Source of the DNA: Acidobacteriota bacterium
GTDB taxonomy: Bacteria > Acidobacteriota > Thermoanaerobaculia > Multivoradales > UBA5704
Assembly: GCA_040349255.1 (NCBI GenBank)
Contig: JBEQUE010000218.1
Span: forward strand, 24,036 to 88,035
Length of the DNA stretch: 64,000 nucleotides
Direction: 5' to 3'
The translations under genes were made by a program, and so were the position numbers. The notes beneath the pieces are model-generated. The model was not told where the DNA came from, searched no databases, and saw only the letters and a list, made by a program, of their open reading frames with translations. Positions 3,197-59,682 of the stretch are shown one piece after another (the first letter of the stretch is position 1; each line of letters begins with the position of its first letter).

Positions 3197-4648
3197 TCAG
3201 CTCAGTCCCGGAGCGGCGCGGAGGAATTCCACGAACTTCGTCAGCCGCCGCTTCGTGGTCTCCCGGCCCATGACCTCGATCAAGTCGAAGAGCGGCGGGC
3301 CTCCGGTGGCGCCCGAAAGGGCCATCCGGGTCGGGTGGATCGGCACGCCCGCTTTCACGCCGCGCTCGTCGGCCAGCTTCCGCAGCTCGGCCTCCAGCGC
3401 CTCCTTCGTGAACTCCGGCAGCGCGTCGAAACGGTCCCGCAGGGTCTCCAGCAGCTCCGGCAGCGCCGGGTCCTTCAGGAACTTGGCGCAGGCCGCCGGG
3501 TCGTAGGCCGGCAGCTCCTGGAAGTAGGGCGTCACCTGCTCGGCCAGCTCCTTCAGGGTCTTGGCGCGCGGGCGGTGAAGCTCCAGCGCCTCGGACAGAC
3601 GCTCCGGATCCGCGTCCGTCAGCCCGTACTGGTCCAGGAAAGGCTCCAGGTAGGGCCGCAGCTCGGCGGTCTCCGTCTTCAGCATGTACTGGGAGTTCAT
3701 CCACAGCAGCTTCTCGCGGTCGAACACCGCCGCCGAGGCGTTCAGGCGGTCGACCGTGAAGAGCTGGATCATCTCCTCGCGCGCGAGGACCTCGCGGTCG
3801 TCGCCCGGGCTCCAGCCGAGGAGCGCCATGAAGTTGTAGAGCGCCTGCGGCAACATGCCCTCATTGCGGAACTCCTCGACCGAGGTGGCGCCGTAGCGCT
3901 TCGAGAGCCGCTTCTTGTCCGGCCCGAGGATCAGCGGCAGGTGGCCGAAGGTCGGCACCTGCCCGCCCAGGGCCTGGAACAGAGGGATGTGCTTCGGCGT
4001 GTTCGACAGGTGGTCCTCGCCCCGGATCACGTGGGTGATCCGCATGTCGATGTCGTCCACCACGACCGACATGTGGTAGGTCGGGGTGCCGTCGGAGCGC
4101 AGGAGCACGAAGTCGTCCAGGGCGTCCGGCGGGAAGTCCATGTCGCCGCGCACCATGTCGTGGAAGCGGATGTGGTCGTCCGGCATCCGGAAGCGGACCA
4201 CGAACGGGCGGCCCTCGGCGAGCCGCGCCTCGACCTCCTCCTTGGAAAGCTTGAGGCAGGTGCGCGGGTAGCGGAAGGCGGCGCCTCCCGCCTGCGCCTC
4301 GGCGCGCTGGGCCTCCAGCTCCTCCTGGGTGCAGAAGCAGCGATAGGCCCTGCCGTTGGCGAGCAGCTCCTCGGCGCGCTCGTGGTGGCGCGGCAGGCGC
4401 TCGCTCTGGAGGAACGGCCCCTCGTCCCAGACCACACCGATCCAGGCCAGGGCGGACTGGATCTGGAGGGTCATGGCCTCGTCCGAGCGCTCCTTGTCCG
4501 TGTCCTCGATGCGCAGGATGAAGGCGCCGCCCATCTTCTGGCGCAGCAGGTCGTTGTAGATGGCGGTGCGGACGCCGCCCAGGTGCAGGAAGCCGGTCGG
4601 GGAGGGTGCGAAGCGCACGCGGACCGGGCCGTTCATCTCCGTAGTCAT
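3197..4648 (-). CDS. gltX: glutamyl-tRNA synthetase
   Basis: C-terminal 483 codons of ORF 3197..5545. Starts MTTEMNGPVRVRFAPSPTGFLHLGG (HIGH motif) and has the KMSKS-type LSKRYG. The upstream part of the track ORF is antisense to the usp gene and low-complexity. Confidence 0.93.
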   Translation of the reverse strand: MTTEMNGPVRVRFAPSPTGFLHLGGVRTAIYNDLLRQKMGGAFILRIEDTDKERSDEAMTLQIQSALAWIGVVWDEGPFLQSERLPRHHERAEELLANGRAYRCFCTQEELEAQRAEAQAGGAAFRYPRTCLKLSKEEVEARLAEGRPFVVRFRMPDDHIRFHDMVRGDMDFPPDALDDFVLLRSDGTPTYHMSVVVDDIDMRITHVIRGEDHLSNTPKHIPLFQALGGQVPTFGHLPLILGPDKKRLSKRYGATSVEEFRNEGMLPQALYNFMALLGWSPGDDREVLAREEMIQLFTVDRLNASAAVFDREKLLWMNSQYMLKTETAELRPYLEPFLDQYGLTDADPERLSEALELHRPRAKTLKELAEQVTPYFQELPAYDPAACAKFLKDPALPELLETLRDRFDALPEFTKEALEAELRKLADERGVKAGVPIHPTRMALSGATGGPPLFDLIEVMGRETTKRRLTKFVEFLRAAPGLS

Positions 4649-4666
4649 AGCGATGGGCAAGGTATC

Positions 4667-5587
4667 ATGCGGTCCATGGAACCAGGAACTTCCCACCCCG
4701 TCATCCTTGCGGCCACCGACTTCTCGGAGACCGCCGAGGCCGCGCTGGACTGGGCCGCCGAGCTGGCCCGCCTCCAGGGGGCCCGGCTGGAGCTGATCCA
4801 TGCCGTGATGCTCCCTCCAGCGATGTCCGGCTTCGTGGCGCCCGGTCCCCTCTTCGACGAGGAGGTGCGCGCCGCCGCCGTCGCCCGGCTCGGCGAGGCC
4901 GCCGGCCGCCTCCGCCAGGCCTCTCCGGGGACCGAGGTCGCCACCCATCTCGCGATGGGCACGCCTTCCCAGGTCATCCTCCACCGCGCCGGAGAGCTGT
5001 CGGCGGCGGCCATCGTCATGGGCACCCGCGGCCTGACCGGCCTGCGCCACCTCCTCCTCGGGAGCACCACGGAACGGGTCATGCACCGGGCGCCGTGCCC
5101 GGTGCTCTCGGTCCACCCCGGCGACCGCGACCGCCACCGGCCGATCCGCTCGATCCTGGTGCCGACCGACTTCTCCAGGGACGCCGAGCTCGCCATCGAG
5201 GCCGCCCACCGGCTCCTCGCGCCCCTGGAGCAGGACGCGCGCCTGGTCCTCCTCCACGCCTTCAACCTGCCGATCGAGTACACCGCCTACGGGCCGATCC
5301 CGACCTCGGTGGACTATCTGAAGGACCGCGGTCTGGAGTCCGAGCGTCTCCTGGAGGAGATGCAGGAGCGGCTGCTGCGCGAGGGCCTGGCCGTGGAGAC
5401 GGTGGCCCGCGAAGGAGACCCGGCCGAGGTGATCGCCTCCGAGGCCGAGTCCCGCGGCGTGGATCTCATCGCCATGGGCACCCACGGGGGGTCCGCGCTC
5501 CGGCACCTGCTCCTCGGCAGCACCGCCGCGCGGGTGCTCCAGCACGCCGCCTGCCCGGTGATGACGATCCGGCGGCCGGAGGAGTAG
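4667..5587 (+). CDS. tandem universal stress protein (two UspA domains)
   Basis: Last 306 codons of ORF 3335..5587, starting MRSMEPGTSHPVILAATDFSE. Two repeats each end in the GxxG...LLGS(T)T..V motif (IVMGTRGLTGLRHLLLGSTTERV and IAMGTHGGSALRHLLLGSTAARV). Confidence 0.85.
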   Translation: MRSMEPGTSHPVILAATDFSETAEAALDWAAELARLQGARLELIHAVMLPPAMSGFVAPGPLFDEEVRAAAVARLGEAAGRLRQASPGTEVATHLAMGTPSQVILHRAGELSAAAIVMGTRGLTGLRHLLLGSTTERVMHRAPCPVLSVHPGDRDRHRPIRSILVPTDFSRDAELAIEAAHRLLAPLEQDARLVLLHAFNLPIEYTAYGPIPTSVDYLKDRGLESERLLEEMQERLLREGLAVETVAREGDPAEVIASEAESRGVDLIAMGTHGGSALRHLLLGSTAARVLQHAACPVMTIRRPEE

Positions 5588-7923: not shown

Positions 7924-8017
<94 letters not shown>

Positions 8018-8141
8018 TGCGGTCCGGCAGGGGTCCTCATTGTATGGGCCCGAGGCCCCGGAGTCAAAAAGGCCCCATCCGGTGCAGGAAGGATAAACTA
8101 GCACCCCCTGTCGGGTATTCCTCTTGGAGGAGGGAGAGATC

Positions 8142-10151
8142 ATGGGTGACGAACCGAAGAATCAGGACCGGCTGGCGATCGACACCATCCGGTTCCTTGC
8201 CGTGGACATGGTGGAAAAGGCGCAGTCCGGGCACCCCGGCGCGCCGCTGGGCCAGGCGCCGCTCGCGTATCTGATCTGGACGCGCCACATGCGCCACAAC
8301 CCGGACAACCCGGACTGGCCGAACCGTGACCGCTTCGTGCTCTCCTGCGGCCACGCCTCGGCCCTGCTCTACGCGCTGCTCCACCTCGGCGGCTACGGCC
8401 TGCCCATGGAGGAGCTGCAGCGCTTCCGCCAGCTCGGCTCGAAGACGCCCGGCCATCCCGAGCACGAGCTGACCCGCGGCGTCGAGACCACGACCGGGCC
8501 GCTCGGCCAGGGGCTCGGCAACGCGGTCGGCATGGCGATCGCGGAGAAGCTCGGCGCCGCCCACTTCAACCGCGACGGCTTCCCGCTCTTCGACCACAAC
8601 ATCTGGGTGATCGCGAGCGACGGCGACATGATGGAAGGCGTGGCCTCCGAAGCCTGCTCGCTCGCCGGCCACCTGAAGCTCGGCCGGCTCAAGGTGTTCT
8701 ACGACGACAACGAGATCTCGATCGACGGCCCCACCTCGCTCGCCTTCACCGAGGACGTCGGCAAGCGCTTCGAGGCCTACGGATGGAACGTCCTCCGGGT
8801 CGGAGACGGCAACGACCTCGAAGCCCTGGAGGCGGCGATCGGCAAGGCCGAGGCCGAGACCGAGCGGCCGACGCTCGTGGTCGTCCGGACGGTGATCGGC
8901 TACGGCAGTCCGCACAAGGGCGGCACGGCCGAGGCGCACGGCGCGCCGCTCGGAGCCGACGAGGTCGTGGCCACGAAGAAGGCGCTCGGCTGGCCGACGG
9001 AGCCGACCTTCCTGGTGCCGGACGGCGCCACGGAGCCGTTCGAGGGCGCCCGCGAGCGCGGCCGCAAGGCCGAGCAGGAGTGGAACGACCTGCTGAAGCG
9101 CTACCGCGAGGCCCACCCCGAAGCCGCCGCCGACCTCGACGGCCGGCTCGCGAACCGCCTGTCGGACGGCTGGCAGGACGCGCTGCCGAAGTTCAAGCCG
9201 GAGGACAAGCCGGTCGCGACCCGCGCCGCCTCCGGCCAGGTGCTCAACGCGCTGGCCGCGAAGATCCCGCTTCTCACCGGCGGCTCGGCGGACCTGACGC
9301 CGTCGAACAACACCTTCCTCAAGGGTCTGCCCAACTTCGAATCCGAGACCCCTGGCGGCCGGAACCTGCGCTTCGGGGTGCGCGAGCACGGCATGGGCTC
9401 GGTGATGAACGGCATCGCCCTGTCGCGCCTGTGGATCCCGTACGGCGGCACCTTCCTGATCTTCTCGGACTACATGCGTCCGCCGATCCGCCTGGCCTGC
9501 CTGATGAAGATCCAGGCGATCTACGTCTTCACCCACGACTCGATCTTCCTGGGTGAGGACGGTCCGACCCACCAGCCGATCGAGCAGCTCTCCGCGCTCC
9601 GGGCCATCCCTGCGTTGCGCGTCATCCGGCCGGCCGACGCGAACGAGACCGCCGAGGCCTGGCGTCTGGCGATCGAGCACCGGCACGGCCCCACGGCCCT
9701 CGCCCTGACCCGCCAGAACCTGCCGATCCTGGCCGAGGCCGTGGACAAGGCCCGCGAAGGCGTGGCGAAGGGCGCCTACATCCTCCTGGACTCCGAAGAC
9801 CCCGAGCTGATCCTGATCGCCACGGGCTCCGAGGTCTCGGCCACGCTGGAAGCCGCCAAGTCGCTCCAGGGCAAGGGCAAGCGCGTCCGGGTGGTGAGCA
9901 TGCCGTGCTGGGAGCTGTTCGACGAGCAGCCGAAGGAGTACCAGGACAGCGTGCTGCCGCCCGCGGTCCGCAAGCGCCTGGCCGTCGAAGCCGGCTCCCC
10001 GATGGGCTGGGAACGGTATGTGGGGCTTGACGGCGAGGTCCACGGCATCGAGCGCTTCGGAGCCTCGGCGCCGGCCAAGGACCTGGCGCGCGAGTTCGGC
10101 TTCACGCCGGAGGCGATCGCGGAGCACGCGGAGGGGATGCTGGGGAGGTAG
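8142..10151 (+). CDS. tkt: transketolase
   Basis: ORF track 8124..10151. [21 protein letters not shown] (ThDP motif) and full-length similarity to Tkt. The ATG at 8142 is preferred because GGAGGAGGGAG lies just upstream. Confidence 0.95.
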
Positions 10152-10163
10152 ACTGGAGGTCCG

Positions 10164-11330
10164 GTGAAAAAGTCTGCGAAAAGCCAGGCGCTGCGCTTCA
10201 CCCTGGTAGAGATCCAGAACTGGCGGAATTTCACCAAGGTTCGGGTCCCGCTCCGGGATCGGGCGTTCCTGGTGGGCCCGAATGCTTCCGGGAAGTCGAA
10301 CTTCCTGGATGTCTTCCGCTACCTGCACGACATTGTCTCGATCGGTGGTGGATTCCGGGAGGCGACCGGCCGGCGCGGAGGCGTGACGAAGCTGCGCTCG
10401 CTCGCGGCTCGAGGACAGCAAACCCAGATCAAGCTTCTCGTCCAGATCGGGAGCGTGGAACGGCCCACTGCCTGGGAGTACGAGATCTGGTTCACCCAGG
10501 ATATTCTGCGGCGGCCAATCCTCAAGCGCGAGCGTGTCGCTCGGGACGGGCAGGATCTCTTCATACGCCCCGACGACCAGGACAAGGCCGACACGGAACG
10601 GCTCACCCAGACCTATCTGGAGCAGGTGAACGTCAACCGGGATTTCCGTGAGGTGGTCGAGTTTCTATCGGCAGTCCGGTACCTCCACGTCGTCCCGCAG
10701 CTCATCCGGGAACCGGAGCGTTCGGTGGGCCGCCAGAACGATCCGTACGGAGGGGACTTCCTGGAGCAGATCGCCCGCAGTCAGAAGACGACGCGAGACG
10801 CACGTCTCCGCCGCATTTTGCAGGCATTGCGGGTCGCCGTTCCCCAGCTCGAAGATTTACAACTCTCCCGGGACGAGGTCGGAACGCCTCATTTGCGAGG
10901 CAAGTACCGTCATTGGCGGCCCCAGGGTGCCTGGCAGACGGAGGAGGACTTCTCGGACGGCACTCTGCGTCTTATCGGCCTGCTCTGGGCAGTGCTCGAC
11001 GGTTCCGGTCCCCTTCTCCTGGAAGAGCCGGAGCTTTCGCTTCATCCGGAGGTCGTCCGCTACCTTCCGCAGCTCCTGGCCAGGGTCCAGCGGCAGTCCG
11101 GGAGACAGGTGATGATCAGTACTCACTCCAAGGACCTTCTGGACGACGGAGGGATCGGGTTGGACGAGGTCCTCCTTCTCCACACGGGAGGCGAAGGGAC
11201 CGAGGTCCGCCGTGCCGACTCTCAGGACGAGGTACGCACGCTCCTGGAAGGCGGCCTTTCGCTGGCGGAAGTGGTGATCCCGCGGACCCGTCCCGAGCGA
11301 GCGGAGCAACTCGCCTTGTTCGACACCTGA
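10164..11330 (+). CDS. ABC/SMC-type (AAA_15/AAA_21-like) ATPase, candidate defence ATPase
   Basis: 388 aa. Walker A GPNASGKSN, signature-like FSDGTLRLIGLL, Walker B LLLEEPELSLHP, H-loop ISTHS. The GTG start is 12 nt after the tkt stop. Confidence 0.8.
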   Translation: MKKSAKSQALRFTLVEIQNWRNFTKVRVPLRDRAFLVGPNASGKSNFLDVFRYLHDIVSIGGGFREATGRRGGVTKLRSLAARGQQTQIKLLVQIGSVERPTAWEYEIWFTQDILRRPILKRERVARDGQDLFIRPDDQDKADTERLTQTYLEQVNVNRDFREVVEFLSAVRYLHVVPQLIREPERSVGRQNDPYGGDFLEQIARSQKTTRDARLRRILQALRVAVPQLEDLQLSRDEVGTPHLRGKYRHWRPQGAWQTEEDFSDGTLRLIGLLWAVLDGSGPLLLEEPELSLHPEVVRYLPQLLARVQRQSGRQVMISTHSKDLLDDGGIGLDEVLLLHTGGEGTEVRRADSQDEVRTLLEGGLSLAEVVIPRTRPERAEQLALFDT

Positions 11331-11333
11331 TCC

Positions 11334-11945
11334 ATGGCCGAGAGCATCGTCATCTCGGGAGCCGTCGAGGGTCCGGTGGATGAGGCCGTGCTTCGCCGTC
11401 TCGTCCGGGATTCCGGGGCCGTACCTGGAACGTTTTACGGCAAGAAGGGCAAGGATCGGCTCGTGCAGCAGGTTTCCGCCTACAACCACGCGGCGCGCCT
11501 CTCCCCGTGGATCGTCCTCATGGACCTTGATCGCGACGCTGACTGCGCCGCCGGGCTCAGAAATCGTCTGCTTCCAAATGAGCCGGTCCCCAATCTCTGC
11601 CTCCGAATTGCGGTCCGGACGGTTGAAGCGTGGCTTCTGGCGGACCGGGAGCGTTTCTCCGATTTCTTCGCCGTCGCTGCTTCCAAGGTGCCTCCGAGTC
11701 CTGAATTCCTCCCGGATCCGAAGAGGACGATCATTGAGTTGGCCCGCTCCTCACGCAGGAAGGAGATTCGCAGCGACATGATACCGAGACCCGAAAGCGG
11801 CCGGCCCGTCGGTCCTGCCTATACCTCTCGAATGATCGAGTACATTGAAAGCGCGAAGGGATGGCGTCCGGCGGTTGCCGCAGAGGCTGCGGACAGCCTT
11901 CGCCGATGCCTGAAGTGTATCCAGCGGCTGATCCGACAGAGCTGA
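11334..11945 (+). CDS. small Toprim-like protein (DUF4276/RloB/DUF4435-type), partner of the ATPase
   Basis: 203 aa, starting 3 nt after the ATPase stop. N-terminal strand IVISGAVEGPVDE (Toprim Glu), LMDLDRD (DxD), VRTVEAWLLAD. It ends 1 nt before tRNA-Ser. Confidence 0.65.
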   Translation: MAESIVISGAVEGPVDEAVLRRLVRDSGAVPGTFYGKKGKDRLVQQVSAYNHAARLSPWIVLMDLDRDADCAAGLRNRLLPNEPVPNLCLRIAVRTVEAWLLADRERFSDFFAVAASKVPPSPEFLPDPKRTIIELARSSRRKEIRSDMIPRPESGRPVGPAYTSRMIEYIESAKGWRPAVAAEAADSLRRCLKCIQRLIRQS

Positions 11946-11946
11946 T

Positions 11947-12035
11947 TGGCGGAGGGGGTGGGATTCGAACCCACGGGCCCTTGCGGGCCGACGGTTTTCA
12001 AGACCGTTGCTATCGACCGCTCAGCCACCCCTCCG
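11947..12035 (-). tRNA. tRNA-Ser (anticodon UGA), CCA encoded
   Basis: The reverse complement reads CGGAGGGGTGGCTGAGCGG...ACGGT CTTGAAA ACCGT...long arm...GGGTTCGAATCCCACCCCCTCCGCCA. Confidence 0.9.
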
Positions 12036-12046
12036 GTGCTTCAAGC

Positions 12047-13342
<1,296 letters not shown>

Positions 13343-13374: not shown

Positions 13375-13403
13375 TTGATCGGGATTCCCCAGGCGCCTAG
13401 AAT
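13375..13403 (+). promoter_or_regulatory. sigma70-type promoter of vapBC-1 (TTGATC-17-TAGAAT), possibly giving a leaderless transcript
   Basis: TTGATC at 13375-13380, a 17-nt spacer and TAGAAT at 13398-13403. The vapB ATG is at 13411, 7 nt after the -10 box, with no room for an SD. Confidence 0.4.
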
Positions 13404-13410
13404 CGATGGC

Positions 13411-13614
13411 ATGAAGACGACGCTGGATATTCCGGAGGACGAGCTGCAGGAAGCCATCCAGCACACCGGAGCGAAGACGAAGCGTGATGCCGTCGTCATC
13501 GCGATCTCCGAATTCAACCGGCGGAGGAGACTTCAAAAACTCGTCGAGAAGTTCGGGACCCTGGACGGATTCATGACCCAGGAGGAGTTGCGTCGGATGC
13601 GGGAGGAGTCCTGA
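13411..13614 (+). CDS. vapB: type II antitoxin, VapB family (MKTTLDIPEDE... type)
   Basis: In-frame part of ORF 13375..13614. The N-terminus MKTTLDIPEDELQEAIQHTG is typical of this VapB family. It sits immediately upstream of a PIN gene. Confidence 0.75.
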   Translation: MKTTLDIPEDELQEAIQHTGAKTKRDAVVIAISEFNRRRRLQKLVEKFGTLDGFMTQEELRRMREES

Positions 13615-14009
13615 GCTCGGGTCAACGCTTTCTCGTCGACACGTCCGCCTGGGTCGAGACGCTTCGGAAGAGCGGCGACGCAGTCATCCGGGCTCGGGTC
13701 AGCGAGGCCACGGCCGATGACCGGGCGGTGCTTTGCGACATGGTACGCGTCGAGCTCTGGAACGGAGCCCGCGATGCCAGGGACCAGAAGCTGCTCAGGG
13801 AGATTGAAGAGCAGCTCCAGAGTGTTCCGACGACGCCGGAGGTCTGGGCTCGAGCGCGGGACCTCGCGCGTCTCGCCCGTGCCAAGGGCGTCACCGTGCC
13901 CGCAGCCGACCTCCTGATCGCCGCCTGTGCCCAGCAGCATCAGCTTCAACTCATCCACAACGATACCCACTTCGACAAGCTGGAGACACTCGAGAGCGAC
14001 GACCTGTAA
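13611..14009 (+). CDS. vapC: PIN-domain toxin VapC; start codon uncertain (only CTG is available)
   Basis: The frame of ORF 13728..14009 extended upstream gives LSSGQRFLVDTSAWVE...MVRVELWNG...IHNDTHFD (PIN acidic residues). There is no in-frame ATG/GTG/TTG between the upstream stop at 13485 and the conserved VDTS. The junction with the vapB stop is CTGAGC. Confidence 0.7.
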   Translation: MSSGQRFLVDTSAWVETLRKSGDAVIRARVSEATADDRAVLCDMVRVELWNGARDARDQKLLREIEEQLQSVPTTPEVWARARDLARLARAKGVTVPAADLLIAACAQQHQLQLIHNDTHFDKLETLESDDL

Positions 14010-14073
14010 GGAAGGTCCTTCAAACGCAGGGCGCCGTGCATCCGTAGGAAGGGATAACATCCCGCCGGCTCCT

Positions 14074-17000
14074 ATGCGCAACCTGCTCACCCGCTTTCTC
14101 CTACCCCTGGCCGTGCTGGGCGCCATCGCGGCGTTCTCGGTCCGCGAGGCCGGCCCCGCGGCGGGCGAGGGTCTGTTCCTGGGGGAGCTGGCGGCGGCGG
14201 TGCTCCTGGTGGTGGCCGCCCTGGCCCCGGGTCCCGCGGCCGAGCTCGGCCTGGGCGCCACGCTCGCGGTGACCGCGGTGTGGTCCCTGCCTCCGGGGCC
14301 GGGACGGGGCGCGACGGTCGTGCTCCTTCTTCTCGCCACGTTCGGGATCTCGGCGGTTCAGCGCCTCTCCCGGGTTCTTCCCGAGCTGCCGGCGGCGGTG
14401 ACGATCCCCCTGGCCCTTGGGGCCCAGCTTTTCCTGCGGAGCGAGCTGCTCTTCGAGCCGGTCACGGTCCGGACGCTCGTCGCCCTGCTGGCTCTGCCGG
14501 TGGTTGCCGGTCTCGCGTTGACGGTCGCGGCCCGGCGCATCGAGGGGCCGCTCGTCCTGATCGCCGCGGCCGTGGCTCTCGCCCTGGGACCGGGCTGGAA
14601 TGTGAGGACGACGGCCGCCGTGATCGTTCTCGGCGCCGCGAGTCTCCTTCTGAAGCGGCGGATCGGACGGCTGCCGGCGTCCGTGGCGGTTCCGGCCGGA
14701 ACCCTGCTCGCGGTTCTGCTCGCGGTCATGGCCCTGCTCGACGCCTACCCCTGGCGCCGGGAGCAGCCGTTGCGCGACGCGCTCGGCCTAGCCCGATCCA
14801 TCCCGGACCTGTTCGCCGCCGGAACGCCGCTGCTCGATCCGGAGACGTCGATCCCGTTCGACGCCGACCGGCCGACGCGCGACAAGGACCTCCCTCTCGA
14901 ACCGATCACATCGATCGTGATCGAGTCGGCGCTCTCGAACGGCGCTCCGCTCGCGGACGGCACTCCGGTCGCCGTGATCCGCCTGACGGACGAGGAGGGG
15001 CGGAGCGTCGAGCGCACCCTCCGCGCCGGCTCGGATACCGGCGAGTGGGCGGCCCGGCGGAGCGACGTGCTGCGGACCGCCCGGCTCCGCTCTCCCGGAC
15101 CCTGGATCACCTGGATCGCCGGCGACTTCTTCGCCCAGCGCTACCGCTGCCGGTGGGACCTCCCTCCCGGCCGCTACACGCGGATGCGGATCGAGCGGAG
15201 CCCCGGCCTGCCGCGGAACGTCAGCCTCGCCGTGCACCAGGTGGAGCTGCGCGGTCCCGGTCTCGCGCGGGCCCTGTCGCTCGCTCCGGGCGATCCGTTC
15301 CGGGGCACGCTCCTGGTTCTGCCCTTGATCCTCGCGGCGCTCGCCTGGATCCACCGCCGGTCGATCCGCCAGGGCGCATTGCCTCTCGACCGGCGCGGGA
15401 CCTTCGGCGAGATCGCGGCGCTCGCCGGGCTCGTCCTGTTGATCTGGATGCGGCCGCACCTGAACCTCGGACGGGCCGACGAGGTCCTGGCCGCCGGGCT
15501 GCTCCTGGTGCTCGGCCATCGCGTCCTCCGGCAGGTCCTCGCGCTTCGCCCCCTCCTCGGCGAGCGCGTGCCGGACTGGCCTTCGGCCGCATTCTTCCTC
15601 TTGCCGCTGGCGGCCTATCTCGCGATCCTCCCCTGGTCGACCTTCCACCGCCAGCCGGACGGCGACGAGCCCTACAACCTGCTCATCACCCACAGCCTGG
15701 CCTACGATTTCGACGCCGACCTGACCAACAACTACGCGGACGGCGACTGGCGGCACTTCATGGACCGGCCGATCGCGCCGCAGCCCGGCGATCCGGTCGA
15801 TCCGGATGGCAGGCTCTACTCCCGGCACAACGAGGCGCTGCCCATGGTGCTGGCGCCCGCCTACCGGCTGGCGGGCAAGACCGGGGCGTTGGCGGTCATG
15901 GCGGCGTTCACCGCGGCCCTGGCCTGGATGACGCTCCGCCTGGCCCGGAGGTATGTGCCGGACCGGCCGGGCGAGGTCCTCGCGGTCTGGGCGCTGGCGG
16001 CGTTCGCGCCTCCTCTCCTCCTCTACTCGTACCAGGTCTGGGTGGAGGTGCCGGCGACGCTGCTCCTGGTCGTGGCGCTCGACCGCATCCTGGGTTTCGA
16101 CGGCCGGCGCTGGGACTGGGCCGAGTGGCTCGGGATCGGCCTGCCGGTTCTGCTGCTGCCACTGGTCAAGATGCGTTTCATGCTCATCGCCGTCCCGCTG
16201 GTGGCCATGGCCTGGTGGTACAGCGGCCGGCCGCGCAAGCCGATCCTGATCCTGTCGGGGCTGCTGTCGGCGCTCGGCGCGGGCATGCTGCTCTACAACC
16301 AGTTCGTCTACTCGAACCCACTCAAGATCCACTCCTGGGAGGAGATCGACCCGCAGCGCCACACCTGGATCCACTATCTGCAAGGCGGCCTCGGCCTGTT
16401 CTGGGATACGGCGTTCGGGCTGTTCGGCTGCGCGCCGGTCTGGATGCTCCTGCTGCCCGCGGCGGTGCTGCTCCTGGCGCGGCGCAGCCGTCTCCTGGTC
16501 CATCTCGCGGTGCTGAGCGCGCCCTACCTGCTCATTGTGGCGCCGCGCACGGAGTGGTACGGCGGATGGTCGCCGCCGTTCCGCTATGCGCTGATCGCGC
16601 TGCCCCTCCTCGCGCTCGGCCTGGTGCCGCTGCTCGCCGGCCGGCGCGGGCCGGGCGCGCGGGCGCTGATCGCCGGGCTCGCGACGCTCACCCTGGCGCT
16701 CACGCTGGTCTGGGTGGTGGTGCCGGGCTGGACCTACAACTTCGCGAACGGCAGGACGTATCCCCTCGATCACCTGGGCGAGAGACTGGGCGAGGACCTG
16801 GCGCGGTTCTTCCCCAGCTCGGTCCGGCCGCGGCCGGCCACCTGGATCTGGCCGCCGGTCTCGCTCGGTCTGGCGGCGCTGGCCTGGTGGCTGCCGCTCC
16901 GGAAGAGGAGCCGGGAGGGATCGGCGCTCGCGGGTGTGGCGCTGGCGATCGCCGGAGCCGCGGCGCTGCCGGCGGTGGCGGCCCGGATGCCCACTCGCAC

Positions 17001-17397
17001 CGTGGAGATGGAGGACGCAGAGGTCTCGAAGAGCGGCGGCCACGTCCATCCCGACCTCTGGATCATCGAGCGGGCGCGCTACCGCGGCGGCTGGGTGCTG
17101 CGCATCGACGAGACGCTGAAGGCGCCGGTCAACCCGGGCGGATCGAAGGTGACGCTCGCGCTCCATGGCGAATTCATCCGCAACCAACCGGTGTCGTTCC
17201 GCCTCGACGTGCGGGCCGGGGACCGGCTGCTGGCGATCTGGACGCCGGGCCGGAGCCGCGTCTGGGAGAAGGTCGTGCTCGGGCCCTTCGACTGGCCGGC
17301 CGGAGAGCCGCTCGTGCTGGCCGCCTACGGACCCCATCCGCCGGGAGCGCTCAACGGCGCGATCCTGGACCGGGTGGACTTCCACTGGGAGAAGTAG
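14074..17397 (+). CDS. very large polytopic membrane protein with a GT-C (ArnT/PMT-like) glycosyltransferase core
   Basis: Part of ORF 13927..17397, starting MRNLLTRFLLPLAVLGAIAAF. Many hydrophobic helices and a periplasmic-loop motif QPDGDEPYNLLITHSLAYDFD. Soluble segments sit in the middle and at the C-terminus. GT genes follow it. Confidence 0.75.
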   Translation: MRNLLTRFLLPLAVLGAIAAFSVREAGPAAGEGLFLGELAAAVLLVVAALAPGPAAELGLGATLAVTAVWSLPPGPGRGATVVLLLLATFGISAVQRLSRVLPELPAAVTIPLALGAQLFLRSELLFEPVTVRTLVALLALPVVAGLALTVAARRIEGPLVLIAAAVALALGPGWNVRTTAAVIVLGAASLLLKRRIGRLPASVAVPAGTLLAVLLAVMALLDAYPWRREQPLRDALGLARSIPDLFAAGTPLLDPETSIPFDADRPTRDKDLPLEPITSIVIESALSNGAPLADGTPVAVIRLTDEEGRSVERTLRAGSDTGEWAARRSDVLRTARLRSPGPWITWIAGDFFAQRYRCRWDLPPGRYTRMRIERSPGLPRNVSLAVHQVELRGPGLARALSLAPGDPFRGTLLVLPLILAALAWIHRRSIRQGALPLDRRGTFGEIAALAGLVLLIWMRPHLNLGRADEVLAAGLLLVLGHRVLRQVLALRPLLGERVPDWPSAAFFLLPLAAYLAILPWSTFHRQPDGDEPYNLLITHSLAYDFDADLTNNYADGDWRHFMDRPIAPQPGDPVDPDGRLYSRHNEALPMVLAPAYRLAGKTGALAVMAAFTAALAWMTLRLARRYVPDRPGEVLAVWALAAFAPPLLLYSYQVWVEVPATLLLVVALDRILGFDGRRWDWAEWLGIGLPVLLLPLVKMRFMLIAVPLVAMAWWYSGRPRKPILILSGLLSALGAGMLLYNQFVYSNPLKIHSWEEIDPQRHTWIHYLQGGLGLFWDTAFGLFGCAPVWMLLLPAAVLLLARRSRLLVHLAVLSAPYLLIVAPRTEWYGGWSPPFRYALIALPLLALGLVPLLAGRRGPGARALIAGLATLTLALTLVWVVVPGWTYNFANGRTYPLDHLGERLGEDLARFFPSSVRPRPATWIWPPVSLGLAALAWWLPLRKRSREGSALAGVALAIAGAAALPAVAARMPTRTVEMEDAEVSKSGGHVHPDLWIIERARYRGGWVLRIDETLKAPVNPGGSKVTLALHGEFIRNQPVSFRLDVRAGDRLLAIWTPGRSRVWEKVVLGPFDWPAGEPLVLAAYGPHPPGALNGAILDRVDFHWEK

Positions 17398-18527: not shown

Positions 18528-18758
18528 ATGCGCATCACCAGCAAGGGACAGGTCACCATTCCCATCGAGATCCGGGAACGGCTGGGGCTTCTGCCTCACA
18601 CCGAGGTGCGGTTCGAAGTGGATGGGAACGCCGTGCGGATTCTCCGGGAGAAGACTTCCGATGGGCGGGGCCAGCGGCTGGTCGAGCGGATGCGGGGCCG
18701 GGCGACCTCGAAGATGAGCACCGAGGAGATCCTCGCCCTGACCCGCGGAGAGAGCTGA
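18528..18758 (+). CDS. vapB: AbrB/MazE/SpoVT-type antitoxin (VapB)
   Basis: ORF track 76 aa. MRITSKGQVTIPIEIRERLGL is the swapped-hairpin AbrB-type motif. Confidence 0.85.
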   Translation: MRITSKGQVTIPIEIRERLGLLPHTEVRFEVDGNAVRILREKTSDGRGQRLVERMRGRATSKMSTEEILALTRGES

Positions 18759-19177
18759 GCGGCGTCCTCGTCGATGCCAATGTGATCCTCGACGTCGCGA
18801 CCGAGGATCCGCTGTGGAGCGAATGGTCCGCGACGATGCTCGCTCGCTGCGCCGACAGCGGCCTGCTCATCATCAATCCCATCATCTACGCGGAGGTCTC
18901 CGTCGGCTTCGACCGCATCGAAGAGCTCGACGAGGTGCTCCCCGCGGATGCGTTCCGCCGCGATCCTCTCCCCTGGGAGGCCGCCTTCCTGGCCGGCAAA
19001 TGCTTCCTCGCCTATCGCCGCAGGGGCGGCGCCCGCCGGTCGCCTCTTCCCGACTTCTACATCGGCGCGCACGCGGCGGTCAAAGGACTGCCACTGCTGA
19101 CCCGCGACCCCAGACGGTACCGCACCTACTTCCCCCATCTGAGCCTTCTGGCTCCCGATGAGGAGAGTCCCGAATAG
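18755..19177 (+). CDS. vapC: PIN-domain toxin VapC; start codon uncertain (only CTG is available)
   Basis: C-terminal 140 codons of ORF 18182..19177: LSGVLVDANVILD...INPIIYAEV...DFYIGAHAAVKGLPLLTRD. The rest of that ORF reads through the palindrome array and the antitoxin gene in another frame. The junction with the vapB stop is again CTGAGC. Confidence 0.7.
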   Translation: MSGVLVDANVILDVATEDPLWSEWSATMLARCADSGLLIINPIIYAEVSVGFDRIEELDEVLPADAFRRDPLPWEAAFLAGKCFLAYRRRGGARRSPLPDFYIGAHAAVKGLPLLTRDPRRYRTYFPHLSLLAPDEESPE

Positions 19178-19188
19178 CCGCTTCGTCC

Positions 19189-20076
19189 ATGCCCCGGCTG
19201 ACCGGCATCGTCGTCCACTGGCGCAATGAAGAGCCTCTTGCGGAGCTGACCGCCGCCTGGCCCAGCGACCCGCGGTTCGAGCTGATCGTGGTGGATAACG
19301 AATCGTCGGAGCCCCTGGCGCTCGGCCCGGGCCGGCTGGTCCAGCCTGGACGAAACCTGGGCTTCGCGGGAGGAGCCAACGCCGGGGCCGCCGAAGCGCA
19401 GGGAGAAATCCTCCTGATCCTCAACCCCGACGCCGTGCCCGAGCCGGGCGCGCTCGACCGGCTGCTCGAAGGCTTCGAGGCTCATCCCGAGTCCGCCGGC
19501 CTCGCGCCTCGCCTGGTGGGATCGGACGGCCGGTCCCAGGCGGGATGGCAGCTCCGGCGTCTTCCTTCTCCATGGCAGCTCCTTCTCCAGGCATTTCCGT
19601 TCACCGGCACTTCCGAGGCTGGACCCGAGCCGCCGGTCGGGTCGCCGGTCGAGCAGCCGGCGGCGGCGGCTTTGGCTCTGAGACGAAGCGTCTTCGAGGC
19701 GGTCGGCGGGTTCGACACCGCGTTCCATCCGGCCTGGTTCGAGGACGTGGACCTCGCCGCCCGACTCAAGCAGACCGGGCATGTCCTTCTCTACTGGCCG
19801 GCGGCCGTGTTCCGGCATGGCCTGGGAAGCACCGTACCCCGGCTTGGCTACGGACGGTTCCTCTGGATCTACTACCGGAACCTGATGCTCTATCTCGGCC
19901 GGCATCATGGAGCGCTCTGGTCGCTGGCTGCCCGGATGGCGCTGGTGCCGGGGATGACGATCCGGCTGCTCCTCCTTCCTTTCTATAGGCCACGGCGCGC
20001 GGCTTCCCGGTCCGAAGCCTTTCGCGGCCTCCTGATGGTCCTCGCCGGAGCCGTCACGGATTGGAAACGGCCATGA
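19189..20076 (+). CDS. family 2 glycosyltransferase
   Basis: ORF track 295 aa. IVVHWRN...LIVVDNES...NLGFAGGANAG...WFEDVDL. Confidence 0.8.
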   Translation: MPRLTGIVVHWRNEEPLAELTAAWPSDPRFELIVVDNESSEPLALGPGRLVQPGRNLGFAGGANAGAAEAQGEILLILNPDAVPEPGALDRLLEGFEAHPESAGLAPRLVGSDGRSQAGWQLRRLPSPWQLLLQAFPFTGTSEAGPEPPVGSPVEQPAAAALALRRSVFEAVGGFDTAFHPAWFEDVDLAARLKQTGHVLLYWPAAVFRHGLGSTVPRLGYGRFLWIYYRNLMLYLGRHHGALWSLAARMALVPGMTIRLLLLPFYRPRRAASRSEAFRGLLMVLAGAVTDWKRP

Positions 20077-56121: not shown

Positions 56122-56163
56122 CTCAGACCCTCTCTGGAGGCCGGAATCCTACGTCAGGAAGGG

Positions 56164-56712
56164 ATGGTTGCAACTGCCAACCATTTCGTCTATCCTCTCT
56201 CCATGGACGCGGCGACCCTCCTCCCCGTGCTGGCCACGGACCCCGATCTGGAGCGGGATTCGGCGGATCTGTATGACGCCCTGTCCAACCTGGTGCGGGT
56301 CTACCAGTTCCGGGACCGGGACCGGATCTGTTGCTACGACGTCTCGGTCACCCAGTGCTACGCGCTGGAGGGGCTGATCCGCGTGGGCAGCATGACGCTC
56401 AACGAGCTGGCGGCCCATCTCTTCCTCGACAAGAGCACGGCGAGCCGGGTGGTGGACGCCCTGGAACGGAAAGGCTACGTGGCCCGCACTCCGCACCCCA
56501 GGGACCGCCGCGCCGTGCTCTTGGAGGCGACCCCGAACGGCCGCGCCCTGGAAAACAGGATCCGCGAGGAGATCCTGGCCGAGGAGCAGCAGCTCCTCGC
56601 CGACTTCCCGCACGAGGTTCGCCGGGCCATGACCGAGCTCCTCTCCCGCCTCGGCCGCGCCGCGAACAGCCGCGTCGAGGCCGGAGGAGGAACCTGCTGC
56701 CGTCTCCCCTGA
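56164..56712 (+). CDS. MarR-family transcriptional regulator
   Basis: Last 182 codons of ORF 53479..56712. VTQCYALEGLIRVGSMTLNELAAHLFLDKSTASRVVDALERKGYVARTPHPRDRRAV. The rest of that ORF is antisense to acs and pepE. Confidence 0.8.
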   Translation: MVATANHFVYPLSMDAATLLPVLATDPDLERDSADLYDALSNLVRVYQFRDRDRICCYDVSVTQCYALEGLIRVGSMTLNELAAHLFLDKSTASRVVDALERKGYVARTPHPRDRRAVLLEATPNGRALENRIREEILAEEQQLLADFPHEVRRAMTELLSRLGRAANSRVEAGGGTCCRLP

Positions 56713-57756: not shown

Positions 57757-58320
57757 ATGCCACGGATCACCGTGCAGGAGCCGTCCGGCAGGGAAGAGAT
57801 CATCCGCGAGCTTCAGAGCGTGCAGAGTCAAGGCCGGGATTTCTGGAATTCCTTCTCCACGGCCGAGTTCTTCTCTCCCTTCGGCGACGCCTGGTCGCCG
57901 GCGGACAACGTCCGCCATCTGTTGAAATCGACCCGGCCGGTGGCCGGGGCTCTCGCGATGCCCAAGGCGCTGCTGGCGATCCGGTTCGGAGCGGCCCTTC
58001 GGGACTCGGTCACATACTCGCAGCTTCGAGAGAGATACCAGTCGATCCTGGCGACGGGGTTCAAGGCCGGCCGGTTCACGCCGGCTCCGCTGAAGCCCTC
58101 CGAGATTTCGGAGGAACACCGCCGATCGATGATGGCCTCTCTGGATACGACCTTCGAAAACCTTCTCTCCGCGGCGGCTCGCTGGCGGGAGTGGCAGTTG
58201 GATCGCTTGCGACTCCCCCATCCGGCGCTCGGCCATCTCACGGTCCGGGAGATGCTCTTCTTCACGATCTATCATCATGTCCATCACGTGGAGAACGTCG
58301 TCCGCCGCATGGCTGCATGA
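57757..58320 (+). CDS. DinB-superfamily protein
   Basis: ORF track 187 aa. His-rich four-helix pattern ending REMLFFTIYHHVHHVENV. Confidence 0.7.
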   Translation: MPRITVQEPSGREEIIRELQSVQSQGRDFWNSFSTAEFFSPFGDAWSPADNVRHLLKSTRPVAGALAMPKALLAIRFGAALRDSVTYSQLRERYQSILATGFKAGRFTPAPLKPSEISEEHRRSMMASLDTTFENLLSAAARWREWQLDRLRLPHPALGHLTVREMLFFTIYHHVHHVENVVRRMAA

Positions 58321-58952
58321 ACGCGTACCAGAGGCTTCTGCTCTCAACGGGGGCGGTCCTGCTCGTGCTCGGGTGCATCGGGGCGCCGTACCCCGAGCAG
58401 ATGTACCTGCAACACATTCCGACCGTCGTCGCCCTTGTCGCTCTCGCGGCGTCGAGCCGATGGTATCCGCTTTCCAATGCGGCGTTCACGTGCCTCATCC
58501 TCTTCCTGCTGCTTCACATCCTGGGCGCGAGGTACATCTACTCGTATGTACCCTATGACGAATGGTTGAGGGCTCTGGTCGGCACGGATCTGATATCCAT
58601 CTTTTATTTCCAAAGAAATCATTACGATCGGCTCGTTCACTTCGCGTTCGGTCTGCTCTGGGTGCTGCCGGTGCGGGAGGTGTGCGTCCGCTACTTCAAG
58701 GTGCCCCGCCGGTTCGCGTTCTACGTGGCTTTCGAGTTCGTGCTCTCGGCCAGCGCGCTGTACGAGCTGTTCGAGTGGGGTCTCACGATGGTCCTTTCGC
58801 CGAACGACGCGGACGCCTACAACGGGCAGCAGGGCGACATGTGGGACGCCCATAAGGACATGGCTCTCGCCGTGCTCGGTTCGGTGGTGGCTCTGGGATT
58901 CCTCTACCTGCGCAGGTATGATTCCCGCCATGCGCCTGAGACTCTTCCGTAA
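58317..58952 (+). CDS. DUF2238 (YjdF-like) membrane protein
   Basis: Last 211 codons of ORF 58191..58952. The ATGA overlaps the dinB-like stop. LLHILGARYIYSYVPYDEWL...NHYDRLVHFAFG...ELFEW. Confidence 0.7.
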   Translation: MNAYQRLLLSTGAVLLVLGCIGAPYPEQMYLQHIPTVVALVALAASSRWYPLSNAAFTCLILFLLLHILGARYIYSYVPYDEWLRALVGTDLISIFYFQRNHYDRLVHFAFGLLWVLPVREVCVRYFKVPRRFAFYVAFEFVLSASALYELFEWGLTMVLSPNDADAYNGQQGDMWDAHKDMALAVLGSVVALGFLYLRRYDSRHAPETLP

Positions 58953-59682
58953 CGCCACCCAGCGCCTCCGGTACGCCGGGCACGAGTTGCTGCTCGATCC
59001 CTACTTCGCTCCGAAACACTCGCGGCCATCTTTCGCGGGCCGGTCTCCCAATCCTCTCGTGGACCTTCCTTGTCCTCCCGAGGAGATCCTGGCCGGGGCC
59101 GAGCTTTTGATCGTCTCTCACCTGCACTCCGATCATTACGATCCCGAGGCCCAGCATCTCCTTCCCAAGGCTCTGCCCGTGCTGTGTCAGCCGGGAGACG
59201 AGGAGACCATCCGGAGCCACGGTTTCGAGCGGGTGACCCCGGTTGTCGATTCGGTCGAGTGGCAAGGCATCACGATCACCCGCACGCCGGGTCAGCATGG
59301 AACCTACCCGGCGGAGCTGGCGGACATGGGACAGGTCTCGGGTTTCGTCTTCCAGGCTTCGGGAGAGCCCACGGTCTACTGGACCGGGGACACCATCCTT
59401 TATGAAGCGGTGTTGCAGGTGATCGAGCGGTTCCGACCGAATGTGATCATCACCCACTCTTCAGGCGCGATGTGGAAGGGATCCGGCCCGATCGTGATGG
59501 ATGCCGACCAGACGCTCGCCGTCTGCAAGGCCGCTCCGCAGAGCCTCGTGGTCGCGATCCATCTCGACTCTCTCGATCACGGCGAGGTGTCGCGCCAGGA
59601 TCTCCATGCCCGCGCGGCGGGGATTTCCCAGCTTCTGATCCCCGAAGACGGCGAGACGCTTCAGTTCCCGATCTCGTTGTAG
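58918..59682 (+). CDS. MBL-fold metallo-hydrolase
   Basis: ORF track 254 aa. LIVSHLHSDHYD motif. Confidence 0.75.
   Translation: MIPAMRLRLFRNATQRLRYAGHELLLDPYFAPKHSRPSFAGRSPNPLVDLPCPPEEILAGAELLIVSHLHSDHYDPEAQHLLPKALPVLCQPGDEETIRSHGFERVTPVVDSVEWQGITITRTPGQHGTYPAELADMGQVSGFVFQASGEPTVYWTGDTILYEAVLQVIERFRPNVIITHSSGAMWKGSGPIVMDADQTLAVCKAAPQSLVVAIHLDSLDHGEVSRQDLHARAAGISQLLIPEDGETLQFPISL

Follow-up and report, generated by a model that had tools for sequence, protein, structure and literature searches.

We analysed a 64,000-nucleotide (nt) stretch of DNA from an Acidobacteriota bacterium (contig JBEQUE010000218.1, positions 24,036 to 88,035 of the forward strand; hereafter the window), in which two adjacent genes, here called A and B, follow the transketolase gene tkt and end beside a tRNA gene. 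The features of this locus are given below in window coordinates (ORF, open reading frame; aa, amino acids).

7925–8017, minus strand: tRNA-Ser(gct), divergent, immediately upstream of tkt
8124–10151, plus strand: tkt (transketolase), the upstream partner; ORF, orthologs with Pfam transketolase domains
10152–10163, plus strand: tkt–A spacer of 12 nt, ACTGGAGGTCCG, read from the sequence
10155–10159, plus strand: GGAGG, Shine-Dalgarno-like, inside the tkt–A spacer, read from the sequence
10164–11330, plus strand: gene A; ORF of 388 aa with a GTG start
11334–11945, plus strand: gene B; ORF of 203 aa with an ATG start
11947–12034, minus strand: tRNA-Ser(UGA), also written tRNA-Ser(tga), convergent with B; found by ARAGORN
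12047–13330, minus strand: serS; ORF beyond tRNA-Ser(tga)

The two ORFs lie 3 nt apart with a stop codon between them, and a single nt separates the B stop from the 3′ end of tRNA-Ser(tga). These ORFs and spacings, as well as the motifs of A and B quoted below, had been described in an earlier annotation made from the letters alone (the sequence-only reading), and all were confirmed exactly. Between tkt, A and B we found no promoter-like or terminator-like sites. Since, in addition, the 12-nt spacer is too short for a promoter, the three genes are likely co-transcribed, and translational coupling is likely as well, as far as the sequence can tell. The tkt–A spacing in six loci was 12, 5, 5, 5, −4 (an overlap), and 39 nt. 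The NCBI protein for A (P0121) has 379 aa and lacks the first 9 codons counted from the GTG at 10164 (window 10164–10190). A GTG or ATG start and the Lys/Arg-rich N-terminus that follows it are kept in the six loci compared; as the start position is conserved and is preceded by GGAGG in the window, we favour the 388-aa form.

The pair is less G+C-rich (0.62–0.64) than tkt, serS and the aldehyde dehydrogenase gene (about 0.70), so that the lower G+C noted in the sequence-only reading is real. The difference is located at third codon positions, where A has a G+C content (GC3) of 0.77 and B one of 0.71 vs. 0.93–0.95 for the same three neighbours. The median GC3 of 46 gene-like ORFs in the window is 0.90, and the lowest value is that of B.

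Among the models of PADLOC-DB, A matched that of HEC-01A (PDLC04180) with an E-value of 4.8e-155 over residues 11–385 (profile positions 2–380 of 382), exceeding by far its scores against the AriA, AbiLi, mad3, Old, GajA and NsnB models. Pfam matches were to AAA_21 (6.5e-34) and AAA_15 (3.9e-16). NCBIfam gave only 80 bits on MAD3, hence no equivalog at a cutoff of 420, and 18 bits on PtuA (cutoff 500); no NCBIfam housekeeping equivalog matched the pair, and its family-level matches were to defence-candidate models only. In PHROGs, A matched only ATPase phrogs of unknown function and B had no viral family. The nucleotide-binding motifs of A, with conservation determined in an alignment of 49 homologs (mean column identity 72%), are the following.

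10275–10298, plus strand: Walker A (P-loop) GPNASGKS, residues G38–S45; G38, P39, N40, A41, G43, K44 and S45 invariant
10950–10964, plus strand: ABC signature-like FSDGT, residues 263–267; F263, S264, D265, G266 and T267 invariant
11013–11033, plus strand: Walker B LLLEEPE, residues 284–290; L285, E287, E288, P289 and E290 invariant
11118–11129, plus strand: H-loop STHS, residues 319–322; S319 and T320 invariant, H321 present in at least 90% of the sequences, not in all

In the Walker B motif, the position normally held by Asp is a Glu, and the catalytic Glu comes next. An AlphaFold2 (AF2) model of A had a predicted local distance difference test score (pLDDT) of 74.5, and its top Foldseek matches in the PDB were PtuA (Septu, retron I-A), an SMC head, Rad50, RecN and OLD, with E-values of 1e-13 to 1e-10 and template modelling (TM) scores of about 0.5. 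Judged by its motifs and structural matches, A is an ABC ATPase of the SMC/Rad50-head type with a complete set of ATP-binding and hydrolysis motifs.

B matched the HEC-01B model of PADLOC (PDLC04194) with an E-value of 1e-59 over residues 5–201 (profile positions 4–199 of 204). HEC-01 models were its only PADLOC matches, and NCBIfam returned nothing meaningful. No match to the DUF4435/AriB, RloB/AbiLii, Toprim_Old or GajA models was obtained in Pfam and PADLOC, for DUF4435/AriB at E-values up to 1. The Pfam family DUF4276 was matched at E ≤0.01 by 42 of 51 aligned B homologs, the best at 5.4e-8. At 50% clustering, B is represented by 2,623 sequences (E ≤0.001); of the 150 best-matching ones, almost every one is a stand-alone protein with a length near 200 aa. 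Three acidic positions of B, all on conserved sites of the 51-homolog alignment, were examined against an AF2 model.

11367–11369, plus strand: Glu12 at the end of strand 1 (VEG), predicted Toprim catalytic and metal-binding residue; invariant, just after model strand 6–10
11523–11537, plus strand: D64-L-D66-R-D68, Toprim DxD-type motif, predicted to bind metal; D64 invariant, D66 mostly D and sometimes N, at the end of strand 59–65
11625–11627, plus strand: Glu98 (VEAWLLAD) after strand 4, an additional conserved acidic residue; E98 and W100 invariant

Invariant residues include E12, D16, K40, D64, C71, E98, W100, K130 and Y163. The model (pLDDT 94; predicted TM score 0.90) has a beta-alpha-beta-alpha-beta-alpha-beta core, with strands at 6–10, 30–35, 59–65 and 88–94 and helices in between, and a helical C-terminal half. 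Foldseek ranked the C-terminal regions of class 2 OLD proteins (6njw and 6nk8) first and second in the PDB (E 0.025–0.034, TM 0.37–0.38), and an RloB-like protein first in a viral library (TM 0.48, probability 0.87). Although weak, these OLD and RloB matches agree with each other and with the literature, in which DUF4276 and RloB are members of the Toprim superfamily that have a conserved E and DxD (PMC12065111). A profile search of PDB sequences returned a sole match, to a sheath initiator (E 0.16), which we regard as spurious. Within the Toprim superfamily, B appears to represent a divergent DUF4276 branch, as a stand-alone protein some 200 aa long, and is predicted to be a metal-dependent nuclease effector.

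By the profile matches of both proteins, whose E-values are well outside what chance would give, the pair is a member of the PADLOC candidate family HEC-01. HEC-01, for Hma-embedded candidate 01, was described as an ABC ATPase with a TOPRIM protein, and the metal site of HEC-01B was aligned to that of Bp OLD (Payne et al., bioRxiv 10.1101/2024.01.29.577857). The gene order is the same as in the window, the ABC ATPase gene being followed by that of the small DUF4276/Toprim protein. The genomic setting differs: the pair is not embedded in Hma (helicase-methylase-ATPase) or another defence locus, but sits in the tkt operon and is vertically inherited. Such embedding is the context in which HEC-01 was discovered, not a requirement of the models. 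The window pair is also far from the member from Pseudomonas agarici. A is 25% identical to the HEC-01A of that species (E 7e-20), and the hhalign comparison of the two B proteins is marginal (probability 33%, E 4.7e-4), with MRDQD and ELEAFYLAD of P. agarici paired with MDLDRD and VEAWLLAD of the window protein.

The sequence-only reading had placed A and B in the class of ABC-ATPase plus Toprim systems (OLD, Gabija, PARIS, AbiL), and the HEC-01A and HEC-01B matches bear this out. It had further held that no named system could be assigned, which stands insofar as none of the AriB/DUF4435, RloB/AbiLii, Toprim_Old and GajA families fits B, but gives way to HEC-01, which does. We compared the pair with each of the better characterized relatives. 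PARIS, like the window, has an ABC ATPase (AriA) and a Toprim effector (AriB) encoded by separate genes, and is the likely working model for the pair, its ATPase scaffold restraining the nuclease until triggered. A shares with AriA a local sequence match around the signature and Walker B (E 1.6e-4). However, A has 388 aa vs. 464 aa for AriA, its nearest structures are PtuA and SMC heads rather than AriA, and B, at 203 aa, lacks the DUF4435/AriB match, whereas the AriB of PARIS has a mass of 35 kDa. The PADLOC "AriA" models hit by A look to us like generic AAA_21/AAA_15 profiles, because their lengths (304 and 373–374 positions) equal those of the Pfam families.

OLD and the GajA protein of Gabija have the ATPase-plus-Toprim logic in common with the pair, and the Walker A region of A matches GajA while its Walker B region matches Ts OLD. 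In both, though, ATPase and Toprim are fused in one polypeptide, and Gabija adds the UvrD-like helicase GajB; the window has two genes, and no helicase gene adjoins them among the ORFs of the locus and the gene calls of a syntenic relative (L001, see below). AbiL consists of two genes, as in the window, for an AAA_21-type ATPase (AbiLi) and a small Toprim-superfamily protein (AbiLii, RloB-like). The match of A to the AbiLi model (1.2e-22) is far below its HEC-01A score, and AbiLii is an RloB protein (PF13707), a profile that B does not match. MADS pairs the Mad3 ATPase with Mad4 (DUF4276), a combination like that of A and B, and A matches the PADLOC mad3 model at 2.2e-19; MADS is, however, an eight-gene system, whose methyltransferase and other mad genes are not near the pair. 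PtuA of Septu and retron type I-A, an ABC ATPase with a separate nuclease partner, provides the closest solved structures to A (E 2.8e-13 to 1e-10), but its partner PtuB is an HNH nuclease and B is Toprim-like. PARIS, AbiL, OLD/Gabija, MADS and Menshen each fail on a defining feature as the identity of the pair. Its proper label is HEC-01-like (ABC ATPase plus DUF4276/Toprim), not PARIS, AbiL, OLD or a tRNA-integrated island.

The history of the locus was followed in ten tkt-linked loci with an A protein at least 74% identical to that of the window, namely the window itself and nine relatives on long contigs. Protein identities to the window were as follows (labels such as L001 denote individual loci).

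L001: tkt 87%, A 90%, B 80%
L167: tkt 89%, A 94%, B remnant with the N-terminal part deleted
L168: tkt 81%, A 86%, B 69%
L003: tkt 78%, A 77%, B 64%
L169: tkt 72%, A 75%, B 56% (B intact, missed by gene calling)
L172: tkt 73%, A 76%, B 58% (B intact, missed by gene calling)
L173: tkt 72%, A 76%, B 59%
L174: tkt 77%, A 79%, B 63%
L175: tkt 80%, A 77%, B 69%

In all ten, A directly follows tkt, and in nine of them an intact B follows A. The common gene order is aldehyde dehydrogenase (minus strand), tRNA-Ser(gct) (minus), tkt (plus), A (plus) and B (plus), and wherever B is intact the two genes are adjacent, co-directional and only a few nt apart. The downstream side is less uniform. It consists of tRNA-Ser(tga) and serS in the window, L001, L168, and L167, where they lie beside the B remnant; in L174 serS comes after B, a tRNA scan not being part of the data for this locus. 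L003 has a DUF455 gene downstream of B and lacks tRNA-Ser(tga), other genes stand downstream of B in L169, L172 and L173, and in L169 the tRNA is about 3.3 kb away. Thus in L003, L169, L172 and L173 the pair is still found behind tkt, with tRNA-Ser(tga)/serS absent or kilobases off. As the downstream flank varies while the linkage to tkt is constant, the conserved junction is tkt and not the tRNA.

This bears directly on the suggestion of the sequence-only reading that the 3′ side of tRNA-Ser was the side of insertion. On such an account the pair would be a recent islet that had entered by site-specific integration at the tRNA-Ser(UGA) 3′ end, as could be suggested by the 1-nt distance of the B stop from the tRNA, by the G+C content below that of the flanks, and by a 12-nt match (11 of 12 positions) between the 3′ ends of tkt (10128–10139) and of the tRNA (11949–11960). 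That match, however, is one of 15 comparable direct-repeat families within 2.3 kb, which is chance level, and it lies within the tkt coding sequence. Neither an integrase nor a recombinase was present among the ORFs between tkt and tRNA-Ser, four loci keep the pair at tkt away from any nearby tRNA-Ser(tga) or serS, and the co-divergence of A and B with tkt, traced down to 72% tkt identity, speaks for an ancient acquisition. Integration at a tRNA-Ser attachment site is essentially refuted by the constant tkt linkage, the co-divergence and a repeat at chance level only, and we consider it very improbable.

Pairwise identities of tkt correlated with those of A (r 0.91, 28 pairs) and of B (r 0.95, 21 pairs). 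Nonsynonymous divergence (dN) of A is similar to that of tkt, and the ratio of nonsynonymous to synonymous divergence (dN/dS) is about 0.05–0.12 for A and 0.13–0.17 for B. From this co-divergence and these ratios it follows that the pair was acquired once, long ago, downstream of tkt, and was then inherited vertically under purifying selection, with occasional loss. The tRNA-Ser(gct)–tkt arrangement was kept in all 11 loci scanned for tRNAs, including L007 and L017 (tkt 63–64%), and since it persists at such distances it must be much older than the insertion of A and B. A search with tkt in GTDB representative genomes gave 80 loci, none with A, B, serS or aldehyde dehydrogenase beside tkt; as the nearest tkt was only 64% identical, this search says little on the recent history.

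Although old and vertically inherited, the pair is accessory and dispensable. A metagenome scan with tkt revealed two loci, L087 (tkt 75%) and L088 (67%), without the pair. In the tkt tree L087 nests inside the pair-bearing clade, and monophyly of the pair-bearers received 0/100 bootstrap support. This placement points to secondary loss in L087 and rules out the locus as an outgroup. In the wider relatives L088, L007 and L017 (tkt 63–70%), tRNA-Ser(gct)–tkt is kept and neither A nor B is present. The sequence-only reading had named conservation in all relatives together with housekeeping-like codon usage as evidence against itself. The locus is indeed kept within the subclade; the codon usage, on the other hand, is atypical, and the nested L087 is without the pair. 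Across loci the GC3 of the pair ranges from 0.61 to 0.86 and is 0.15–0.3 under that of the neighbours in every case.

Several damaged or possibly damaged alleles were encountered. L167 carries a natural B-loss allele (9139–9390), in which only B residues ~120–202 are left, directly after the A stop and 75% identical to the window protein. The first ~119 codons, with E12, DxD and E98, are cleanly deleted, while A is intact at 94% and synteny is otherwise kept. In L170 (11165–13673), from another lineage, B extends over two reading frames (high-scoring segment pairs 11183–11371 and 11349–11780), which either a frameshift or an error in sequencing would explain; the gene after B encodes an RVT_1 reverse transcriptase of 598 aa, and an IS66/IS240 transposase fragment lies upstream. 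The short Logan assembly L004 (253–1421) shares its B protein with L003; gene calling splits its A into two ORFs (270 and 112 aa), so that the allele is frameshifted or the assembly faulty.

Outside the clade the pair occurs after an apiosidase gene (L005) and after hydantoinase genes (L170). Homologs 65–70% identical to A were found in Acidobacteriota, Poribacteria, Anaerolineae, Deltaproteobacteria and Alphaproteobacteria, an identity level across phyla that implies horizontal spread. In L171 (4502–11855), from another phylum, the neighbours of the pair (A 67% identical to that of the window) encode a phage-type integrase and a resolvase as well as an AAA_25 protein and an HTH_17 protein resembling excisionases. 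Given the adjoining integrase, excisionase-like gene and resolvase, the L171 pair is apparently cargo of an integrative element.

With these data we could weigh whether A and B are a domesticated housekeeping module, constitutively expressed from the tkt operon and taking part in the nucleic-acid metabolism of the cell, for instance in repairing DNA or processing RNA. RecF/RecN/SbcC-type ATPases and the Toprim proteins RecR or RNase M5 would be the models for such a function. The tkt–A linkage in all ten related loci would fit, as would the spacers of 5–39 nt or overlaps with no promoter or terminator signal, the equal dN of A and tkt with co-varying identities (r 0.91), the 65–70% identity of A across phyla and its 72% mean column identity, the absence of defence or mobile genes flanking the pair, and the negative outcome of the one well-documented phage test of HEC-01, that of the P. 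agarici pair. Yet the nested L087 lives without the pair, L167 has lost the catalytic half of B with synteny kept, and L088, L007 and L017 have no pair. Every locus shows a lower GC3 for the pair than for its neighbours, other phyla carry the pair in unrelated settings, among them an integrative element, and the matches are to defence-candidate models only, with no NCBIfam housekeeping equivalog. We therefore regard a plain housekeeping role as unlikely. It is conceivable, with a similarly small chance, that this HEC-01 subfamily monitors a conserved host process as a "guard", or that it has been exapted for a constitutive nucleic-acid-processing role; this idea comes from the 65–70% identity of A across at least five phyla, its rate of change, no faster than that of transketolase in the clade, and its wiring into the tkt operon.

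Some further features were seen on the serS side. In the window, a VapB antitoxin gene (13375–13614, plus strand; Pfam VapB_antitoxin, 2.6e-8) precedes a PIN/VapC gene (PF01850, 1.7e-12), the whole region spanning 13375–14009. These VapBC genes sit between serS and a large ORF downstream of it that has no Pfam match (13927–17397). They are without a counterpart in the otherwise syntenic L001, and hence appear to be an insertion in the window genome. The PIN frame is already open ahead of 13599 and contains the catalytic LVDTSAW; its first canonical start, a GTG at 13728, is downstream of LVDTSAW, and a CTG overlaps the VapB stop (cCTGAg) at the place where an ATGA-type overlap would be expected. 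In L175 a gene with a SocA_Panacea domain, which is toxin–antitoxin (TA)-associated, lies between B and serS (4374–4907). Together, the SocA_Panacea gene of L175 and VapBC of the window suggest that the serS side collects small accessory genes. Elsewhere in the window, the ORFs 93–2156, 18596–20076, 56149–56613 and 58191–59682 have GC3 values of 0.71–0.79, as low as those of A and B and well under the median of 0.90; possible explanations are additional genes of foreign origin and spurious ORFs.

Beside the family membership, motifs, fold class, synteny and co-divergence observed here, our preferred reading of the pair is a functional one: with a probability of roughly 0.6, we take A and B for a defence-type ATP-gated nuclease module of the HEC-01 family, made up of an ABC ATPase together with a Toprim-like nuclease. 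OLD and GajA cut DNA, AriB cuts tRNA, and PARIS behaves both as a TA-like system and as an abortive-infection defence. From analogy with this established behaviour of OLD, GajA/Gabija and PARIS we infer an A–B complex, a nuclease activity with its substrate, and a role in defence. A would dimerise or oligomerise on ATP and bind B, and would hold B inactive, or direct it, until a cue arrives from an invading phage or mobile element. B would then act as an Mg2+-dependent nuclease and cut DNA, as OLD and GajA do, or tRNA, as AriB does. The invader would be blocked by this cleavage, possibly at the expense of the cell.

A number of results weigh against this reading. The match of B itself to DUF4276 (PF14103; 19 bits, E 0.0017) is below the Pfam cutoff of 30.2. 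None of its Foldseek matches reached an E-value of 0.001, and the likeness to Toprim folds is weak (TM 0.37–0.48). No match to B was found in 50,697 phage records, and plasmids gave a single distant match, on a megaplasmid. A evolves as slowly as tkt and is highly conserved across phyla, which is atypical of phage sensors. No defence genes flank the pair, its neighbours being genes for GlnRS, Usp, aldehyde dehydrogenase, tkt and serS, and the gene calls of the syntenic L001 contain no defence Pfam families either. To our knowledge, nuclease activity, an A–B interaction or a trigger has been shown for no member of HEC-01. The HEC-01 pair of P. agarici, expressed in E. coli, gave no protection against any phage tested (bioRxiv 10.1101/2024.01.29.577857). 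With A only 25% identical and B barely alignable, this negative result concerns a distant subfamily. On the other side, E. coli B carrying one randomly chosen cold-seep HEC-01 cluster was protected from one or more of the phages T4, T5 and T7, a report in which neither the sequence nor the fold-reduction is given (PMC12881386).

The two-gene arrangement could also be read as selfish addiction of a TA-like kind, in which B would be a toxic nuclease and A its ATP-dependent neutraliser, so that loss of A would kill the cell and no net anti-phage benefit would arise. The tight coupling of the genes with the putative effector downstream is compatible with this, as are the natural alleles that lose B and keep A (the L167 deletion and the apparent L170 frameshift), the direction of loss allowed for a toxin. 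TA-type genes near serS (VapBC in the window, SocA_Panacea in L175) point the same way, and so does nomenclature: the Pfam description of AAA_21 reads "putative AbiEii toxin, Type IV TA system", and PDB entries label AriA as "AriA antitoxin". However, the strong purifying selection on both genes over a long vertical history argues against addiction, and the clean loss of the pair in L087 speaks against a pure form of it. We judge addiction by itself improbable; it also overlaps with the defence reading, as TA-like behaviour and abortive infection are not mutually exclusive, PARIS showing both.

PADLOC surveys find HEC-01 to be one of their most abundant candidate defence types, and in cold-seep genomes it ranked in the top 12 (PMC12881386), while its experimental record consists of one negative and one positive test. 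The locus described here defines a large and very conserved HEC-01 subfamily, far from the P. agarici pair that was tested in detail, and its natural B-loss alleles are offered as comparators. For annotation, the practical value lies in a correction, namely a HEC-01-like name and no tRNA island. Beyond routine annotation, what stands out is the long-term fixation in the tkt operon together with the unusually slow evolution of A: such a pair can stay fixed for long in a housekeeping operon under purifying selection while being dispensable. If the guard or exapted role were true, the locus would exemplify an ATPase/Toprim pair of the defence type that has become a housekeeping module.

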